Shown here: positions 3,580 through 15,521 of the stretch, one piece after another | Layout of the letters: each line of letters starts with the position of its first letter | How positions within the stretch are numbered: position 1 is the first letter of the stretch | Assembly: GCA_964016885.1 (NCBI GenBank) | Contig: OZ024740.1 | Coordinates: 431,396,001 to 431,460,000, forward strand | DNA from: Eledone cirrhosa | Taxonomy: Eukaryota | DNA: 64,000 bases | Direction: 5' to 3' | Notes under the pieces: generated by a model | What the model saw: the letters and a program-made list of their open reading frames with translations, nothing else | Databases searched by the model: none | What the model was told of the DNA's origin: nothing | Program-made: the position numbers and the translations under genes

Positions 3580-3975
3580 TGGATGAACTGAGGGAGAAAC
3601 TACTAGGTGTATGAGGAATCCGAGGTGGTCTGTTTTGGTGTATATGAGAGAGAGAGAGAGAGAAACTGAGGGAGAAACTAGATGTAAGAGGAATTCAAAA
3701 TGTTGTGCAAGAGAGAAGACTGTATTGGTATGGACATGTGAAGTTTATGGATGATGATCACTGGGGGAAAATGTACCAGGAAATGCCAGTGGAAGGAAGC
3801 CGTAGAAGAGGTAGACTAAGGAAGACATGAGCAGAGATGGTGAGAGCTGATCTCAAATTGCTGAGACTCACAGAAGAGATGACGAAGGAATGCAATGAGT
3901 GGAGAGATGCTGTGCTGAAAAGGACCCATCCCACCCATGCAATCATGAAAGAACAGACATAAAATTGCTGATGAA
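3580..3975 (+). mobile_element. RTE-clade LINE 3' end (5'-truncated), with a duplicated LREKL segment and a short (GA)n
   Basis: 3665 onward translates LREKLDVRGIQNVVQERRLYWYGHVKFMDDDHWGK..VEGSRRRGRLRKT*AEMVRADLK..EWRDAV, the typical RTE C-terminus (RL.W.GHV.RM; RRRGR..KTW). It ends cccacccatgcaatcatgaaagaacagacataaaattgctgatga. Confidence 0.85.
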
Positions 3976-4118
3976 CATACACAGAGCACCACTACTAATA
4001 TCCAAAACTTTGGAGAAAGAAACTGTTTTATAACCTATTTTAAACTCCAGTAAATATGATACAATTCAGTTCAGTTTACTTTATTTATTTTGTTTACAGC
4101 AAATTATAAACAATCATA

Positions 4119-4148
4119 CAGGGTGGAAAATGTACAGACAGACAGACA
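4119..4148 (+). repeat. Left-hand unit of composite minisatellite GGGTGGAAAATGTA(CAGA)n
   Basis: gggtggaaaatgtacagacagacagaca is the same unit as the array at 9503-9820 on the other side of the Tx1 element. Confidence 0.9.
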
Positions 4149-4371
4149 AATTTCTGTTTATTTGCCACGAGGGCACAAAAGAAAGGGACATGTACATGGG
4201 GGGGGGGGGGGAGTCCATATAAATCGAGTAAAAATGTAATAAATAAAATTGTAACAAGAAGGTCCTCAATAGGGAGGGATCGTTTTGGGGTCACACACAC
4301 CCCCGAAAAAAAATGTGCGATCCTTCTCCACGGGAGCACAAAGAGAGGGTGATCCCTTCTTCCTTTTCCAC

Positions 4372-7300
4372 CTACAGGCTGAGGTAGAGAGAAGGCCCAT
4401 TCACACGGGCCATTCTCGCAACTTTCACCCACCTTTCATAAAACTGGCTGGGGTGGAGCACCTCTCTCTCCATCCTGATCCTTCTTCCGAAATGGTATCG
4501 GAAGAAAAGGACCAGTTGTTGGCCGGAAAGAAAGGTGTCCGACCTCAGCCCTTTTAGACGCGTCCACCATATAACCTCTTTTACACAGAGGAAGACCGCC
4601 TCTCCTTCATTTTTGAAGGGGAGAGGCGGCTTGATCGTTACAATGGACTCGGTGGTCAACCTAATTGGTCCCACCCGTGACAGCAGTTGTTCGACATAGC
4701 CCCACAGATCGGTAACGCCCGGGCAGTGCACCAATGCGTGCGCGACGGTTTCTTCGTCGCGCACGCATCTGGGACAGATCTTTTTCAAGGGGTCCCTACC
4801 CGGGCGCCCGTGTCTGTAGAGCTTATCCCGAACGGGCAGAGCCCCTAGGTAGCACTGCCAGGCCAAGGACTTCTGGAAGTTGTCCATAGGTCCCGGGCCG
4901 AAAGTCCTACCGAATAGGCTGGCCAGTTCGTCCTCCTCCATGCCTAGGGTTTCTCCGAGGGCGTCATCGCACCTGCTAACCACCAGCCCTCTATAGAATG
5001 ACGAGGTGGAGTCTCCACCGATAGCCGGGTCCGCCTGCCAGAGAGCCGTGAGCGCCTGGGCACACTCGGTGTGCCAGTCGCCCAGTTTTCTCGGCCTTTG
5101 TTTCACCCAGGACTGCAGCTCGGTGAGCGAGACGAGCCTCGGGAAGGCTCTCCTCACAAATGGGTCCCACACCGGTTGACCGGTGAGGAATACCTGGAGG
5201 TGCCGTAGCCTCAATGCGTGTTTACGCATTTTTAGCCACAGCATCCCCAGCCCTCCTTTCAAAGGGTGTTGACAGCAGATGGATCTCCTCACCAGGGGAG
5301 ACCTCTTCTTCCAAAGGAAGTGAAAGAGAGTGCGCTCCATATTGGCGAGGATCTCACCCGGGCAAGGCACGACAGTCAAGCGGTAATAGATGATGGACGC
5401 TATGTAAGCGTTCGCCACCTCCGCCCAACCTTTCAGGGATAGTTTGCACTCGGCTCACTTCTGGGTCAGTGCAAACACCCTATTCGTCACCTCACCCCAG
5501 TTTTTCTCCACCTGGAGGTCCGGTCCGAACCAGACCCCAAGCGACTTTACTGGGCTCCATCCGATGATACCGTCGCACGACATCGGTTTGCACCTCCACT
5601 CGCCGAGTTGCAAAGCGACTGACTTGTCCCGGTTCAGCTTAGCCTCTGTCAACCTTTCGTACTCCTCCAGTAAGGTGCCGATTGCCTCGATTTCCGCGGT
5701 GGTCGACACCATTACTGTTACGTCATCGGCGTAGGCCGACACCGCTTTGCGCAATCCCGGTTCCAAAGGGATGCCCTGCAACAACTCCAACTTCCGCAGT
5801 AGTGGCTCGAGAGCCAATACATACAGAAGGGAGGAGAGAGGGCACCCCTGTCGGATGGAACGGGTGATTTCGAATGGCTCCGAGAGGTAGCCGTTCACCT
5901 TGACTCTAGAGCAGATGCGGCTGCTGTGCATGGCAGTGATCCAGCCCCTGAAAACGGGTCCGAAACCAGCCGCCGCTAGCACCGCATCCAGGTAACCATG
6001 GTCCACCCTATCGAAAGCTTTAGACTGATCTAAATTTATCAGGGCCCCACCAAAGCCGGGTTCGTTCCCAACCCTCTCTATGATGTATCGTATGAGGTGG
6101 AGGTTGTCGTGGATGGACCTGGATGGGATAGCGCATGTCTGCACACCTCCCACTAGGCCCCCCCCACGACAAGCGACAACCTCTTCGCTAACACCTTGGC
6201 CAAAATCGCAGGACCTCGCCTCCTTGTCTGAAAGACGCGGCAGGCCGTCGAGGTATGGACCTAAATCCACATCTCCAACCGGCCTCCCGCCCCTCCCGAA
6301 CAATCGGGCAAAGTGCCTTTGAAAGGCCTCGCACATTTGCTTAGGTTCAAGGATCACCCGTCCATCCTAGTCTTGCAAAGACCGGATAGTGGGTCTAATC
6401 CCACTTTTGGCTTCAGTCACGTGGGCCCAGCTAACAGATTTGGTCCCCTCGTTTCCCAGAGCACGTATTTTGCTTCGGACAACGCAGCCTTCGTGTTTCG
6501 CGTCGAAGAACTGGCTCAAGGCCGTTCTCGACGCTTGCACTCTGGCCACGTTGCCGCTTCTCATTGCCTCTTCAACATTAACTACCAACTCCCTTTCCTT
6601 CCTATTTCTATCTGAGGCTAGCTCCTTACAAACTCCTATTGAAACTACTCTAATCTCTCTTTTTAGAGAGCCCCACCACCTGCTGTTGACGATGGCGCCC
6701 GTCAACCGCTCCTTAACTAAGGTTCTAATCCGGTCCCTGTAAGCTCTACTTGCCGGTAAGGACAAGTTGAGCTTCCATTAACCGGGTCCCTGCCTATGCG
6801 TTCTATCAAGGTGGACTACACAGGTCACTAACTTGTGATCTGAATAGCCCACCATGAGCATTTCTGGACAACTTAAAAAGTCCCTATCCTTAATTCTAAC
6901 TAAGAACCTATCTAGGTACGATCTAGATTGACCGCTATGATTTGTCCAAGTCCAGGTTGGCACAGTCGAAAAATCTAGTCGATATCTATCGGCCAGGTCA
7001 AATCGGTCGATTAACCCCTTGAGGTTGTTACATCCCCCTCTATCGGGACATGCCCTACATAGTCCCAACGTGCATCTAGGATACCATTCCAGTCCCCCAC
7101 TAAAAGCAAGGAGCGAGACGTCCCTAGAAAAGTCTCCAGACGATAGAAGAAGTCCGACCGCATTGCCCCAAAGGGGGCGTAAACGGCGACAAGCCTAAAG
7201 GCTTCACCTTCACCACTGCCAAGGTCCAGAACCACGAGTCGACCCTCCGGGTCCAAGTGTACCGTCTGTGTAGCGAGACCCAGATGTTTTTGCAGCAGAA

Positions 7301-7514
7301 CGACAACCCCAGCCCCACCTCCGGGCTGACAGAGAGATGCGTGCATCTCAAAGTCATCAAAGGTGGGGGCTAGTTGTCGCATGCTGCTGATCCGGGCCTC
7401 GCAAATAACCATCACATTTATACATCGTGACCTGAGGTCATTTAGAAGTTTAGCTTGCTCTCAAGGTGAGCCCAGGCCACGCGCATTTAGACAACCTACT
7501 CTTAACACAGCCAT
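4372..7514 (-). pseudogene. Tx1 ORF2 (AP endonuclease, reverse transcriptase, C-terminal zinc finger), disrupted
   Basis: Starts MAVLRVGCLNARGL at 7514. APE motifs: VYAP, GDWN, TWT, SYLDRFLV, SDH. RT motifs: LDQSKAFDRVDH, IRQGCPLS, AYADD, SLGV. Zinc finger: CPRC..EETVAHALVHC. In-frame stops at ~7461, 6778, 6367 and 5455, a frameshift at ~7060, and an internal deletion at ~6208. Confidence 0.93.
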
Positions 7515-9327
7515 GTTGGTGGTAAAGAAAGAGGCACTTACCTCTCTGCGTCCCGGGGTCCGGGCTGTTCAGTTTCCATGGGGGTGGTGGAGGGGTTGTT
7601 GGGTGGGTGGTGGTTTGTGGTGGTGTGGGGGTATTATTGTGTGGAGGGGTTGGGGTGTTTGGAATTGTGTGGGTGTTTGAGGAGGGGAGGGGAAAACCTT
7701 TCAGGAGGACGCGGTTGAGTGGCCTGGTGCAGGGTGGCCCCACGTCCTCAGGGTAAATGTTTTTCAATGTTTTGAAAATGTCAAGTGGGACTTTTACCAT
7801 TTTCAGGTTAGGGAGTCCCGTTGCCATTGCAAAATTCGGCCCTTCGGTTTGTACCGAAGGGTTGTTGTTTATTTTGTCTGTTAAGTTTTTATTGTTTTTG
7901 TTTATGTATGTGTAGAGTTTTTGTGTTGTGTTTGTTTTTGCTTGTTGTTCTTGAGTGAGCTTGCGTTTTGTTGTCTGTGTTGTGTTGTCAGGTGGGGTTA
8001 TTTTTGTTTGCGTGGTGTGTGTACGTTTTTTCCTTTTGACTTTTTGGAAGGGAGCCCCTTCGTCTTCCGAGGATATGAGCTTCACTTCCGTATTGGAGGG
8101 GAGGGGTATATTGCCAGGTTGTGTTTGCTCTGCGTGTGTTTTTGTATTTGTGTTCTGTGGGGAGGGGCTGGGTGGGACCGTGTTTTGGGTTGTTTTCTTG
8201 AGCTGTTGTTGTTGATGTTGTTGTTGTGGTGGTGGTGGTGGAGGTGGTGTTGTTGGTTTTTGTTGTCGTTGTGGTGGTGGTGGTGATGGTGGTGTATTTT
8301 GTTGTTTTTGTGGTGGTGGTGCTGGTTGTTTTTGTTGTTGTTGTGGTGTTTGTAGCAGTGGTTTTTTGTTGTTAGTAGAGGGCAGGCAGTCCTCAGGTGA
8401 CCTCTGCCAGCGCAGTGGTAACATAAGGGCCTCCTGCCTTCCACCGTAATATTAATAAAGGTTCGACCATCCAGTAGTACTCGGTCGGGTATTCCGGCGA
8501 TTCTCTCAGGTGTCATCTGTATGAGAACCTCCAGACTTTCCCCCCCGAACAGTCCACTGGTGGACTCACCTGCTGATATTAGGATGTCCTTTTCTAGGTC
8601 CGTGAATCCTGTCAGGACGGACTAGATGTTTACTTCTGGCGTTGAGCTCCACATTCTTAGTCTTTGTGTTCTTCTTCCTTTATATGTGGGGAAGAAGGTG
8701 TATTGTGGTGACACTATAGGTGCCACCGAGCATTTTTGAGCCAGCATTTCGTCCTTCATTCGGACCATAATGCTGGCATACAGCTTTCCTCTTTCAATAA
8801 AGAGTATGTCTTTTTTTATGTCTTTCAGCACCAGCTCAATTTGACTTTCTGTCAATTGAGCTGGCTTTCTTGTTGCGTTGGATATAGTCCTGAAGGTTAT
8901 GGTATTCCTATATACCTGTTGACGAACTTCTTCTGGGGAGTTGATCGTAAAAGAACCATCCTCCCCAAAAGATACGTATTTTCTGACATTTAGCAAGTTC
9001 TGCTTAGCGTTAGTAATATCTATGGGCTTGTATTCGATAGCTTTCCTGACCGTTTGGGCAAAAGAAACTTTGCTGTCTTTGTTGCTTTCGCTTCGTTCAT
9101 TGTTGCTTGTTGTTGCAATGTTGTTGGTTCCATCTTTTGTGGTATTTGTTTCCCTGTTATTTTTTTCAAAATTTAGGTTTTCACTCGAATTAACAGTCTT
9201 TTTTTCCATTCGAGAGGAGGGGTTGTTCAACAGTTTGAATTGTTGTTCCCTCTTTCTCACTTTTTTTGGTGGGCGTGGCGTTAGCTTGCAATATGGCTTC
9301 CTCGTTTTTAACGATATCGATAAACAT
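7450..9327 (-). pseudogene. Tx1 ORF1 (gag-like, zinc knuckle CYHCAGRGHLRTAC, Pro/Gln/Thr-rich C-terminal half with basic KVKRKKR), disrupted
   Basis: ORFs 8622..9260 and 8082..8516 are in one frame, separated by a single TAG at 8624-8622. A frameshift after the knuckle into ORF 7450..8424 is inferred. The probable ATG at 9327 is offset by 1 nt in the homopolymer at 9261-9267. Both ends are approximate. Confidence 0.75.
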
Positions 9328-9502
9328 TTTAAAATTAAAGATTTTCACCCCAAAAGGGGCGAAAATATATTTACCCTACGTCTACAGTCCCAGACGAGGG
9401 GTTAGAGTCAACAATAGTAACAAAATTCAAATAATACACTCACAAATAACCAAGTAGTGATTCAAAATCGAAGAGCCGATGTGAAAGACGTCTACTATCA
9501 AC

Positions 9503-9707
9503 GACAGACTGACTGACAGAGAGACTGACAGACAGACAGACAAGGTGGAAAATGTACAGACAGGCAGACAGACAGACAGACAGACAGAGAGACAGAGAGG
9601 GTGGAAAATGTACAGACAGACAGACAGACAGAGAGACAGAGAGGGTGGAAAATGTACAGACAGAGAGACAGACAGACAGACAAACAGACAGAGAGGGTGG
9701 AAAATGT

Positions 9708-9744
<37 letters not shown>

Positions 9745-9820
9745 GAGGGTGGAAAATGTAGAGACAGACAGACAAACAGATAGACAGGGTGAGGAAATGT
9801 AGAGACAGACAGACAGGGTA
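9503..9820 (+). repeat. Composite minisatellite (GGGTGGAAAATGTA)(CAGA/GAGA)n, about 6 units
   Basis: The core motif occurs at ~9544, 9599, 9643, 9695, 9747 and 9787 (diverged), separated by GACA tracts. Confidence 0.95.
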
Positions 9821-10605: not shown

Positions 10606-12136
10606 TTCATACATATTTTACAAATATCTTCAGACATATTTTACAAATATCTTCAGACATATTTTACAAATATCTTCAGACATATTTTACAAATATCTTC
10701 AGACATATTTTACAAATATCTTCATTCATATTTTACAAATATCTTCAGACATATTTTACAAATATCTTCAGACATATTTTACAAATATCTTCATACATAT
10801 TTTACAAATATCTTCAGACATATTTTACAAATATCTTCATACATATTTTACAAATATCTTCAGACATATTTTACAAATATGTTCATACATATTTTACAAA
10901 TATCTTCAGACATATTTTACAAATATCTTCAGACATATTTTACAAATATCTTCAGACATATTTTACAAATATCTTCATACATATTTTACAAATATCTTCA
11001 GACATATTTTACAAATATCTTCATACATATTTTACAAATATCTTCAGACATATTTTACAAATATCTTCATACATATTTTACAAATATCTTCAGACATATT
11101 TTACAAATATCTTCATACATATTTTACAAATATCTTCAGACATATTTTACAAATATCTTCATACATATTTTACAAATATCTTCAGACATATTTTACAAAT
11201 ATCTTCATACATATTTTACAAATATCTTCAGACATATTTTACAAATATCTTCAGACATATTTTACAAATATCTTCATACATATTTTACAAATATCTTCAG
11301 ACATATTTTACAAATATGTTCATACATATTTTACAAATATCTTCAGACATATTTTACAAATATCTTCAGACATATTTTACAAATATCTTCATACATATTT
11401 TACAAATATCTTCAGACATATTTTACAAATATCTTCAGACATATTTTACAAATATCTTCATACATATTTTACAAATATCTTCAGACATATTTTACAAATA
11501 TCTTCATACATATTTTACAAATATCTTCAGACATATTTTACAAATATCTTCATACATATTTTACAAATATCTTCAGACATATTTTACAAATATCTTCATA
11601 CATATTTTACAAATATCTTCAGACATATTTTACAAATATCTTCAGACATATTTTACAAATATCTTCAGACATATTTTACAAATATCTTCATACATATTTT
11701 ACAAATATCTTCAGACATATTTTACAAATATGTTCATACATATTTTACAAATATCTTCAGACATATTTTACAAATATCTTCAGACATATTTTACAAATAT
11801 CTTCATACATATTTTACAAATATCTTCAGACATATTTTACAAATATCTTCAGACATATTTTACAAATATCTTCATACATATTTTACAAATATCTTCAGAC
11901 ATATTTTACAAATATCTTCAGACATATTTTACAAATATCTTCAGACATATTTTACAAATATCTTCAGACATATTTTACAAATATCTTCATACATATTTTA
12001 CAAATATCTTCAGACATATTTTACAAATATCTTCAGACATATTTTACAAATATCTTCATACATATTTTACAAATATCTTCAGACATATTTTACAAATATC
12101 TTCAGACATATTTTACAAATATCTTCATTCATATTT
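10606..12136 (+). repeat. 23-bp tandem repeat CA(G/T)ACATATTTTACAAATATCTT, ~66 copies
   Basis: Directly visible and very homogeneous, with mainly one G/T dimorphism. Confidence 0.98.
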
Positions 12137-12421
12137 TTTTTAAACACATTTTCTAAAAAAATGTTTACTAAAATCTGGAAAACATTTGGTGTCCCTGTAA
12201 AGAGAAAAATATAACATAGAATTATAATTTATCCAGAAAGTATTAAAAATATTTGTAAAATTATAAATTTCTTGTAACTAGATTGGGAGAAGTATCATCA
12301 AGGAATTGATCCAAAAATATGACTAGTACTGGTGATGGAATTTAGTTTAGTGGTCTGTTACCATCTATATATATGAAAACATTAATATTCACTTACATGC
12401 TTGATATTCTTGGAAGAAAAC

Positions 12422-15400
12422 TAATGTAAAGTGGTTGTGTAGGTGACACAACAAAAAGCACCCAGTCCACACTGTAAAATGGTTGTGTTGGTGACACAAC
12501 AAAAAGCACCCAGTCCACACTGTAAAGTGGTTGTGTAGGTGATACAACAAAAAGCACCCAGTCCACACTGTAAAGTGGTTGTGTAGGTGACACAACAAAA
12601 AGCACCCAGTCCACACAGTAAAATGGTTGTGTAGGTGACACAACAAAAAGCACCCAGTCCACACTGTAAAATGGTTGTGTAGGTGACACAACATAAAAGA
12701 ACCCAGTCCACACTGTAAAATGGTTGTGTAGGTGTCGCAACAAAAAGCACCCAGTCAACACTGTAAAATGCTTGTGTAGGTGACACAACAAAAAGCACCC
12801 AGTCCACACTGTAAAGTGGTTGTGTAGGTGACACAACAAAAAGCACCCAGTTCCACTGTAAAGTGGTTGTGTAGGTGACACAAAAAAAGCACCCAGTCCA
12901 CACTGTAAAATGGTTGTGTAGGTGACACAACAAAAAGCACCCAGTCCACACTGTAAAGTGGTTGTGTAGGTGTTGCAACAAAAAGCACCCAGTCCACACT
13001 GTAAAGTGGTTGTGTAGGTGACACAACAAAAAGCACCCAGTCCACACTGTAAAATGGTTGTGTAGGTGACACAACAAAAAGCACCCAGTCCACACTGTAA
13101 AATGGTTGTGTAGGTGTTGCAACAAAAAGCACCCAGTCCACACTGTAAAATGGTTGTGTAGGTGACACAACAAAAAGCACCCAGTCCACACTGTAAAATG
13201 GTTGTGTAGGTGACACAACAAAAAGCACCCAATCCACACTGTAAAATGGTTGTGTAGGTGTCGCAACAAAAAGCACCCAGTCAACACTGTAAAATGCTTG
13301 TGTAGGTGACACAACAAAAAGCACCCAGTCCACACTGTAAAGTGGTTGTGTAGGTGACACAAAAAAAGCACCCAGTCCACACTGTAAAATGGTTGTGTAG
13401 GTGACACAACAAAAAGCACCCAGTCCACACTGTAAAATGGTTGTGTAGGTGTTGCAACAAAAAGCACCCAGTCCACACTGTAAAGTGGTTGTGTAGGTGA
13501 CACAACAAAAAGCACCCAGTCCACACTGTAAAATGGTTGTGTAGGTGACACAACAAAAAGCACCCAGTCCACACTGTAAAATGGTTGTGTAGGTGTTGCA
13601 ACAAAAAGCACCCAGTCCACACTGTAAAATGGTTGTGTAGGTGACACAACAAAAAGCACCCAGTCCACACTGTAAAATGGTTGTGTAGGTGACACAACAA
13701 AAAGCACCCAATCCACACTGTAAAATGGTTGTGTAGGTGTCGCAACAAAAAGCACCCAGTCCCCACTGTAAAATGGTTGTGTAGGTGTCGCAACAAAAAG
13801 CACCCAGTCCACACTGTAAAGTGGTTGTGTAGGTGACACAACAAAAAGCACCCAATCCACACTGTAAAATGGTTGTGTAGTTGTTGCAACAAAAAGCACC
13901 CAGTCCACACTGTAAAATGGTTGTGACACTGTAAAATGGTAGGTGACACAACAAAAAGCACCCAGTCCACACTGTAAAGTGGTTATGTAAGTGTTGCAAA
14001 AAAAAACACCCAGTCCACACTGTAAAATGGTTGTGTAGGTGACACAACAAAAAGCACCCAGTCCACACTGTAAAATGGTTGTGTAGGTGACACAACAAAA
14101 ATCACCCAGTCCACACTGTAAAGTCGTTGTGTAGGTGACACAACAAAAAGCACCCAGTCCCCACTGTAAAATGGTTGTGTACGTGACGCAACAAAAAGCA
14201 CCCAGTCCACACAGTAAAATGGTTGTGTAGGTGTTGCAACAAAAAGCACCCAGTCCACACTGTAAAATGGTCATGTAGGTGTTGCAACAAAAAGCACTCA
14301 GTCCACACTGTAATATGGTTGTGTAGGTGAAACAACAAAAAGCACCCAGTCCACACTGTAAAATGGTTGTGTAGGTGACACAACAAAAAGCACCCAGTCC
14401 ACACTGTAAAATGGTTGTGTAGGTGTCGCAACAAAAAGCATCCAGTCCACACTGTAAAGTGGTTGTCTAGGTGACACAACAAAAAGCACCCAGTCCACAC
14501 TGTAAAATGGTTGTGTAGGTGACGCAACAAAAAGCACCCAGTCCACACTGTAAAATGGTTGTGACACTGTAAAATGGTAGGTGACACAACAAAAAGCACC
14601 CAGTCCACACTGTAAAATGGTTGTGTAGGTGTTGCAACAAAAAGCACCCAGTCCACACAGTAAAATGGTTGTGTAGGTGACACAACAAAAAGCACCCAGT
14701 CCACACTGTAAAATGGTTGTGTAGGTGACACAACAAAAAGCACCCAGTCCACAATGTAAAGTGGTTGTGTAGGTGACACAACAAAAAGCACCCAGTCCAC
14801 ACTGTAAAATGGTTGTGTAGGTGACACAACAAAAAGCACCCAGTCCACACTGTAAAATGGTTGTGTAGGTGACACAACAAAAAGCACCCAGTCCACACTG
14901 TAAAATGGTTGTGTAGGTGACACAACAAAAAGCACCCAGTCCACACTGTAAAGTGGTTGTGTAGGTGACACAAAAAAAGCACCCAGTCCACACTGTAAAA
15001 TGGTTGTGTAGGTGACACAACAAAAAGCACCCAGTCCACACTGTAAAATGGTTGTGTAGGTGACACAACAAAAAGCACCCAGTCCACACTGTAAAGTGGT
15101 TGTGTAGGTGACACAACAAAAACCACCTGGTCCACACTGTAAAGTGGTCATGTAGGTGTCACGACAAAAAGCACCCAGTCCACACTGTAAAGTGGTTGTG
15201 TAGCTGATACAACAAAAAGCACCCAGTCCACACTGTAAAGTGGTCATGTAGGTGTCACGACAAAAAGCACCCAGTCCACACTGTAAAGTGGTTGTGTAGG
15301 TGACACAACAAAAAGCACCAGTCCACACTGTAAATTGATCATGTAGGTGACACAACAAAAAGCACCCAGTCCACACTGTAAAGTGGTCATGTAGGTGTCA

Positions 15401-15521
15401 CGACAAAAAGCACCCAGTCCACACTGTAAAGTGATCATGTAGGTGACACAACAAAAAGCACCCAGTCCACACTGTAAAGTGGTTGTGTAGGTGACACAAC
15501 AAAAGTTACCCAGTCCACACT
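12422..15521 (+). repeat. 48-bp tandem repeat AAAATGGTTGTGTAGGTGACACAACAAAAAGCACCCAGTCCACACTGT, ~64 copies, SINE-related
   Basis: Directly visible. The 16-aa period in the ORF track confirms the unit length. Confidence 0.98.

Follow-up and report, generated by a model that had tools for sequence, protein, structure and literature searches.

A retrotransposon family of Eledone cirrhosa that lands, without poly(A) tails, at T[G>A]TCT motifs lying mostly in (TGTC)n repeats

The window analysed here is a stretch of 64,000 nucleotides (nt) of the Eledone cirrhosa genome (assembly GCA_964016885.1, contig OZ024740.1, positions 431,396,001 to 431,460,000 of the forward strand). Reading of its sequence places within it a full-length non-LTR retrotransposon (one without long terminal repeats) of 5354 nt (4149-9502, minus strand), which interrupts a GGTGGAAAATGTA(CAGA)n minisatellite. 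The family to which this element belongs is site-preferring: its copies are found where a T[G>A]TCT motif occurs, for the most part within (TGTC)n repeats. We think it likely, with a probability of roughly 0.7, that the family lands at these motifs without poly(A) because its apurinic/apyrimidinic endonuclease (APE) makes its nick in the (GACA)n strand and a few repeat units flank its RNA at both ends. What is seen across the family is a junction preference, no A-tails, repeat that was present before insertion, some target duplications of 15-21 nt, 5' ends in phase with the repeat, intact young copies, and arrays.

The preference is most easily counted on the 3' side of the element. The exact terminal 19-mer is present in 272 copies across the 3.0-Gb genome, 252 of which continue with NWRTCT, 232 with G (NWGTCT) and 20 with A (WATCT), so that a TATCT continuation is found at about 7% of 3' ends; these figures take in array members as well as some duplicated loci, and miss copies with an altered end. 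Among the nearest 3' ends, 28 of 30 continue N[TA][GA]TCT, and 27 of 30 of the nearest 5' ends are preceded by T[GA]TC (for each end, the top 30 of the 40 matches listed); the corresponding backgrounds per base, taken from 20 arbitrary 10-kb stretches, are 0.6% and 0.8%, and the end queries are themselves repeat-free. Because the G/A base at the junction may be RNA-templated (232:20 here, 0:671 in the sister 3' ends described below), we rely on the flank at +8 to +37, where 84 TCTG and 9 TCTA are counted in the first 30 hits on C1, as against about 3.5 of each expected. Kojima's rule takes a long interspersed nuclear element (LINE) to be microsatellite-specific if the same type of flank is present in more than 20% of copies (PMC4494074). 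In this family the NWGTCT flank is shared by 232 of 272 copies.

Both junctions were paired for 110 of 118 loci (7 did not resolve and one duplicate was dropped), and 107 have usable upstream sequence. None of the 110 junctions has an A-rich tail (at least 5 A in the first 8 nt). The three bases that follow AGAAAT track the local repeat (TTG 66, CTG 12, TTA 6, TAG 6, GTG 4, others 7), and local variants after AGAAAT(T) include TAGTC, CTGTC, and GTGTC; because these bases follow local variants, a repeat tail on the RNA would probably be read-through flank rather than an encoded tail. That a short motif suffices as target is argued by locus L296, inserted at a lone TTGTCT, and by L071, inserted at TGTATG. 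An earlier note, made from the letters of the window, had proposed that the family targets GACA repeats. This is borne out by the 252 of 272 exact 3' ends that continue N-[TA][GA]TCT, and neither random flanks nor poly(A) tails, named there as signs against the idea, were seen in the copies tabulated. The (GUCU)n RNA tail that it put forward has indirect support. Its description of the target as a microsatellite needs amending: what the family lands at is a brief T[G>A]TCT motif, one that usually, but not always, lies in a microsatellite, as L296 and L071 illustrate.

The anatomy of the window copy is much as the earlier note had read it. The element splits a composite minisatellite, with units at 4121-4148 and 9503-9820, the latter recovered as a 48-52-nt array by a tandem-repeat search. 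On the minus strand its 3' end has AATAAA and CAGAAAT(T), followed directly by TGTCTGTC with no A-tail, and its 5' end, GTTGATAG, directly adjoins GTCTGTC at 9503, as claimed. The C at 4156 is the mark of the TGTC-flanked lineage; TATC-flanked lineages have T there. A hidden duplication of at least 7 nt had also been suggested, and the GACAGAC match is present (4141-4147 = 9503-9509), but the duplications that can be read in the family are longer (15-21 nt). A second reading, which fits the window copy too, has a duplication of 15 nt (4134-4148 = 9528-9542) plus 25 extra bases (9503-9527), within which lie three GACT variants, with zero in the remaining array. Absent from the earlier note was the defective state of the copy, which is dead: its open reading frame 2 (ORF2) has four stops and one frameshift, and 273 nt present in other copies are deleted from it; the ORF2 pieces match Exo_endo_phos (weakly), RVT_1, and zf-RVT in a profile search.

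Upstream of truncated copies, at least two TCTR lie within 30 nt in 14 of 27 cases, compared with a background of 3.1%, and this repeat argues that the target pre-exists insertion. In full-length copies, repeat lies 31-60 nt upstream in 49 of 80. (At 80 of the 107 paired junctions, such copies are unusually frequent, but 20 loci had been chosen by their 5' end.) The 5' flank ends in TC in 76 of 80 full-length versus 1 of 27 truncated copies, the start of full-length copies being fixed by a set offset per subfamily, and full-length 5' ends are in phase with the repeat whereas truncated ones are out of phase. Target duplications are readable where site-specific variants exist (for example in L205, L202, and L296): they measure 21 nt in L095, 19-20 nt in L296, 19 nt in L085, 18 nt in L205, and 15 nt in L202, with about 17 nt and a mismatch in L071 and about 21 nt in L265, a copy of the TATC sister. 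In a strict test, informative duplications of at least 15 nt were found in 4 of 107 loci versus 0.11-0.15 expected from cross-pairs, and 46 of 57 informative full-length copies have no long duplication. Several of the duplications then carry extra repeat-bearing bases. In L296, the duplication is accompanied by 14 additional nt; these close with AAATTTGTCTGTC, a sequence made up of the 3' end of the family itself and two units of the repeat. The 5' type of L296, TTTGATAG, differs from the type of its neighbour L297, TGAGGATAG, so that its front end was not copied from the neighbour downstream.

These junctions bear on the idea that there is no targeting, and that an element with a (TGTC)n tail goes in at any site, giving rise to microsatellites that later expand on both sides. 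Seeding would suit those 3' tracts that are merely one or two units long (L006, L296), and the extra repeat bases at 5' ends indicate an element able to add repeat. It is already largely refuted, however, and we consider it highly improbable: truncated copies, which have no 5' leader, still have repeat upstream (12 of 25 by a strict count), repeat extends to 31-60 nt upstream of full-length copies, the bases after AGAAAT track local variants, the window copy interrupts a minisatellite unit that was there before it, and site-specific variants lie inside the duplications of L205, L202, and L296. Still less credible is random insertion followed by survival in repeats alone, through selection or low recombination, although passive accumulation has been invoked for Drosophila Waldo-A/B (PMC3812793). 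Survival bias cannot yield a single orientation and phase at 252 of 272 ends, nor can it split sister lineages 84:9 versus 6:84 (TCTG:TCTA), and copies that are about 99% identical to one another have the same pattern.

Several points nevertheless weigh against targeting by a nick in the (GACA)n strand and an RNA flanked by repeat. Twenty of the 272 ends are off the motif, and copies are not independent, since arrays and duplicated loci are counted. The upstream-repeat figure becomes 12 of 25 when the near-full-length L066 and L175 are left out, and 13 of 27 copies scored as truncated have no upstream repeat by the rule used; among these 13, not each of which was checked, are one insertion off the target and several copies that look like the result of later insertions or of alignment breaks. 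The TC preceding full-length 5' ends may be part of the element itself, and the extra 5' bases may stem from local template switching or have had no template. Some adjacent array units are 99.9-100% identical and have identical spacers. Lastly, the empty allele was not seen when contigs of four sequencing runs were compared with 3680-4400; contig X1 spans 3903-4163, reaching 14 nt into the element, which is too short for bridging, and the sample is possibly the source of the genome. Loose ends at the last 50 nt (X2, X5, X7, X10; X5 gave none) are mostly GATA-type, come from more distant relatives, and are uninformative for GACA.

For the mechanism itself, we infer the nick and all of the RNA steps. 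The APE domain would nick the GAYA strand. Transcription would begin in the upstream repeat and continue past AAUAAA. Cleavage usually occurs 10-30 nt beyond AAUAAA, a distance that would here lie within the downstream (UGUC)n. The read-through tail of the RNA would pair with the nicked primer, so that copying would begin at ...AAAUU and poly(A) would be skipped. At the other end, the 5' leader would either anneal to the upstream repeat, in which case the junction is precise and hardly any duplication can be read, if any at all, or end up as extra bases behind a duplication of 15-21 nt. Every insertion would leave targets at both of its ends, and arrays would consequently grow by insertion, with some array units duplicated later as DNA.

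A related question is what sets the choice between GACA and GATA. The 3' end that has T for C at 4156 (T-type) is present in 1135 copies genome-wide, of which 671 continue NWATCT and none NWGTCT. Eleven of the first 30 T-type hits belong to a further subfamily, with 10 of these in TATATC-type or other repeat; the remaining 19 hold 84 TCTA and 6 TCTG at +8 to +37. (A T-end subfamily with GATGCCCTG before the terminal 19-mer, seen in L239, L247, and L249-L258 and giving many hits on C1, uses TATATC or TACTCT sites that lie within a different dispersed repeat.) Between the young TATC and young TGTC families, the endonuclease is 80.6% and the reverse transcriptase (RT) 91.4% identical, and the hairpin loop of the endonuclease is SNN in the TGTC family versus ANR in the TATC family. 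The older TATC-flanked sublineage, on the other hand, is within about 5% of the window copy and has the same hairpin loop, TNH; it differs at 10 diagnostic bases, two of which alter the endonuclease (C31G, R46Q). Twelve copies with G31/Q46 were read (10 of 11 exact hits and two near matches), and ten of them have the 3' end. Eight of the ten are T-type: seven have TATC at the 3' junction, two of these in mixed TATC/TGTC tracts, and the eighth has TATC upstream and (TA)n downstream. The other two are C-type mosaics located in TGTC, where the flank follows the 3' end and not the enzyme.

It could be that the endonuclease alone selects the site, as has been assumed for Kibi and Koshi; the RNA would then stop at AGAAAU(U) and hold no repeat, and the G/A preference would come from endonuclease differences. 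The greater divergence of the endonuclease than of the RT in the young families, together with the change of loop, is as enzyme-set targeting predicts, L182 combines an ANR enzyme and a C-type end and yet lies in TATC, and a swap of the endonuclease domain alters the target in SART1/TRAS1 (PMC7265360). Such an account is unlikely to be sufficient, since it leaves unexplained the lack of poly(A) despite AATAAA, the in-phase full-length versus out-of-phase truncated 5' ends, and the extra AAATTTGTCTGTC in L296. Moreover, the old TGTC and TATC lineages have a common loop and differ solely at C31G and R46Q, and the two G31/Q46 copies with a C-type end lie in TGTC. Within the mechanism of a repeat-flanked RNA, the choice may tentatively be ascribed to the RNA, although we would not bet on it: the enzyme would nick either repeat and the read-through tail would pair with the matching one, and pairing of the tail would possibly be helped by the terminal A[C/U]AGA, whose complement, UCU[G/A]U, comes directly after it. 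L182 counts against an RNA-set choice, as do the small numbers and the fact that the mosaics could come from gene conversion after insertion. A predicted hairpin formed by the last 18 nt of the element and (UGUC)n has a pair probability of 0.74-0.8 but is weak and not significant beside controls, where it ranks in the top 8-9% of windows with a shuffle p of about 0.06, and it does not count as support here. A snap-back step that would copy the terminal C/T from the flank at each insertion was considered and rejected, because C-type ends precede TGTCTATC, TGTCTCTC, and pure TATC.

Young copies are found in arrays. In the subfamily that starts TGAGGATAG, ORF1 (584 codons) and ORF2 (1163 codons, stop to stop) are open in 16 of 26 array units, which are 98-100% identical to one another and about 92% identical to the window copy. 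Eight places with head-to-tail arrays were read, the one at C3:358.73-358.78 Mb holding nine copies, and 22 of 23 spacers consist of 9-169 nt of repeat. Varied spacers point to serial insertion, and identical neighbouring units to a certain amount of DNA duplication. Some copies (L062, L066, L070, L094, L099) have the same ORF2 and 3' end but another 5' untranslated region and ORF1 start (GACGGAGGTAGAC, about 64% identity), a swapping of the 5' module in which the TGTC flanks are kept. Others (L033, L040, L043, L058, L179, L220, L229, L268) often lie directly in the (TATC)n tail of distant relatives ending GGCTAATAAAGAAA, and such insertions build mixed-family chains.

Judged by its RT and endonuclease, which are closer to L1 than to R2, the family belongs to the L1 clade. 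The intact relative P0001, which is 92-94% identical to most window ORF2 pieces, matches Exo_endo_phos, RVT_1, and zf-RVT, in the L1-clade order of N-terminal APE, RT, and C-terminal Cys-rich zinc region. The endonuclease motifs LNARG, ICEAR, VYAP, GDWN, LDRF, and SDH, which we take to be catalytic, align with human L1 ORF2p. This protein (PDB 8sxt) has the same APE-RT layout (aligned residues 24-876, E 6e-51) and is the best match among solved structures, at 176 bits versus 67 bits for R2, these two being the sole retrotransposon ORFs among 10 hits; the comparison of clades covered L1 versus R2. Unlike the family, human L1 inserts at TT/AAAA (PMC6007223) and has a poly(A) tail and a Transposase_22 ORF1. 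The ORF1 protein P0002 has one CX2CX4HX4C motif, with a weak zf-CCHC match (E 0.067, below cut-off), and no Transposase_22 or RNA recognition motif match was found in it by the profile search. These features fit the Type I ORF1 described for Tx1, which has a CCHC knuckle and no Transposase_22 (PMC5203782), and because of the knuckle the family likely belongs to the Tx1 subgroup, as set against the description of Tx1 rather than named Tx1 sequences. In an RT tree of 28 rows, built without named Tx1 or an L1 outgroup, the family groups with a protein of Argonauta hians (100/99), the source of the closest named homologue (67%); zebrafish BAC82613 scores 335 bits yet is not sister in this tree.

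Other LINEs are known from microsatellites. Kibi on (TC)n and Koshi on (TTC)n, both in teleosts, and crocodilian Tx1 on (TTCC)n/(TTTC)n are also APE-RT L1-clade elements (PMC4494074, PMC3812793); compared by their descriptions, they act in a similar way, but the family is not placed in the Kibi/Koshi lineage, as its flanks are (TGTC)n, or (TATC)n in its sister, and its host is a mollusc. Waldo on (ACAY)n, Mino on (AC)n, and Dong on (TAA)n use simple-repeat targets too but differ in both clade and motif (PMC3812793), and these, with TC, TTC, TTCC, and TTTC for Tx1, are the LINE microsatellite targets given in the two sources. No GACA-targeting LINE was found in the literature searched, although Repbase or Dfam entries may already record the target. 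An annotation of O. vulgaris reports that 13 L1-Tx1 families were active recently; its main text does not use the word "target" (PMC13282606). A precedent for the junction pattern is found in R1 elements. For the melanogaster-type R1A, Stage and Eickbush inferred a full-length RNA with 6-27 nt of upstream target; as in the family, most full-length 5' ends are precise and a minority have a duplication and extra upstream target, and truncated copies have duplications, while ancestral-type R1 forms tandem arrays through insertion into the duplication (PMC2718515). R1 differs in belonging to the R1 clade and residing in 28S ribosomal DNA; here the leader pattern and long arrays are combined in an L1-clade element of a dispersed microsatellite. 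In SART1, which inserts into (TTAGG)n, RNA bases that resemble the target are able to pair with the nicked strand, so that reverse transcription begins at an internal position, but SART1 normally starts at a poly(A) tail (PMC7265360), which copies of the family do not have.

Table 1. Features of the window that belong to the element and its target.
Feature	Positions	Strand	Remarks
Split left minisatellite unit, GGGTGGAAAATGTA(CAGA)n = GGTGGAAAATGTA(CAGA)n unit	4121-4148	+	3' flank of element
Target (ACAG)n tract, 3' copy of likely duplication	4134-4148	+	15 nt in one reading; 7 nt or more (4141-4147) in the other
L1-clade (likely Tx1) non-LTR retrotransposon	4149-9502	-	full-length, defective; 90-95% identity to intact young copies
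3' terminus GGCAAATAAACAGAAAT(T), without poly(A)	4149-4166	-	AATAAA at 4157-4162
ORF2 remnant: APE endonuclease, RT, zf-RVT	4372-7514	-	4 stops, frameshift at about 7014-7053, 273-nt deletion at about 6205
ORF1 remnant	7541-9344	-	one CX2CX4HX4C knuckle, Q/P/T-rich tail; stops and frameshifts
25 nt with GACT variants, possibly donor-derived 5' leader	9503-9527	+	analogous to L296, L085, L265
Likely 5' copy of 15-nt target duplication (second reading)	9528-9542	+	
Right part of composite (CAGA)n minisatellite	9503-9820	+	6-7 units

Elsewhere in the window, a 40-bp satellite (about 1195 copies, 16200-64000) makes up three quarters of the sequence; its left edge continues in frame into a short ORF that reads SFRLKRRLYDACVQTEMLYGS, presumably a fragment of an RTE-type LINE. 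Two more tandem arrays lie at 10606-12137 (23 bp x 67) and 12425-15521 (48 bp x 64), and positions 1-2200 of the minus strand hold ORF pieces (PTRGDNTLDLIFT...SDH) that we take to be a decayed CR1/L2-type LINE.

The choice of microsatellites by APE-type elements is poorly understood (PMC3812793). The (GACA)n target was not found among the microsatellite-specific LINEs searched, and the family that uses it has intact young copies. Its lineages, about 95% identical, split between GACA and GATA while standing two endonuclease residues and one terminal base apart, a difference so small that enzyme-set and RNA-set targeting could be separated by a small swap experiment; to separate them bears on efforts to insert genes with retargeted LINEs. 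Repeat units seem to be added by the family, which also appears to build arrays of about 50 kb, and may in this way shape the microsatellite content of the genome. If the choice of repeat is set by the RNA, a lineage could switch its target, and inherit the new one, with almost no change in protein, and the family would be an L1-clade LINE whose landing site is set by RNA and propagates itself.

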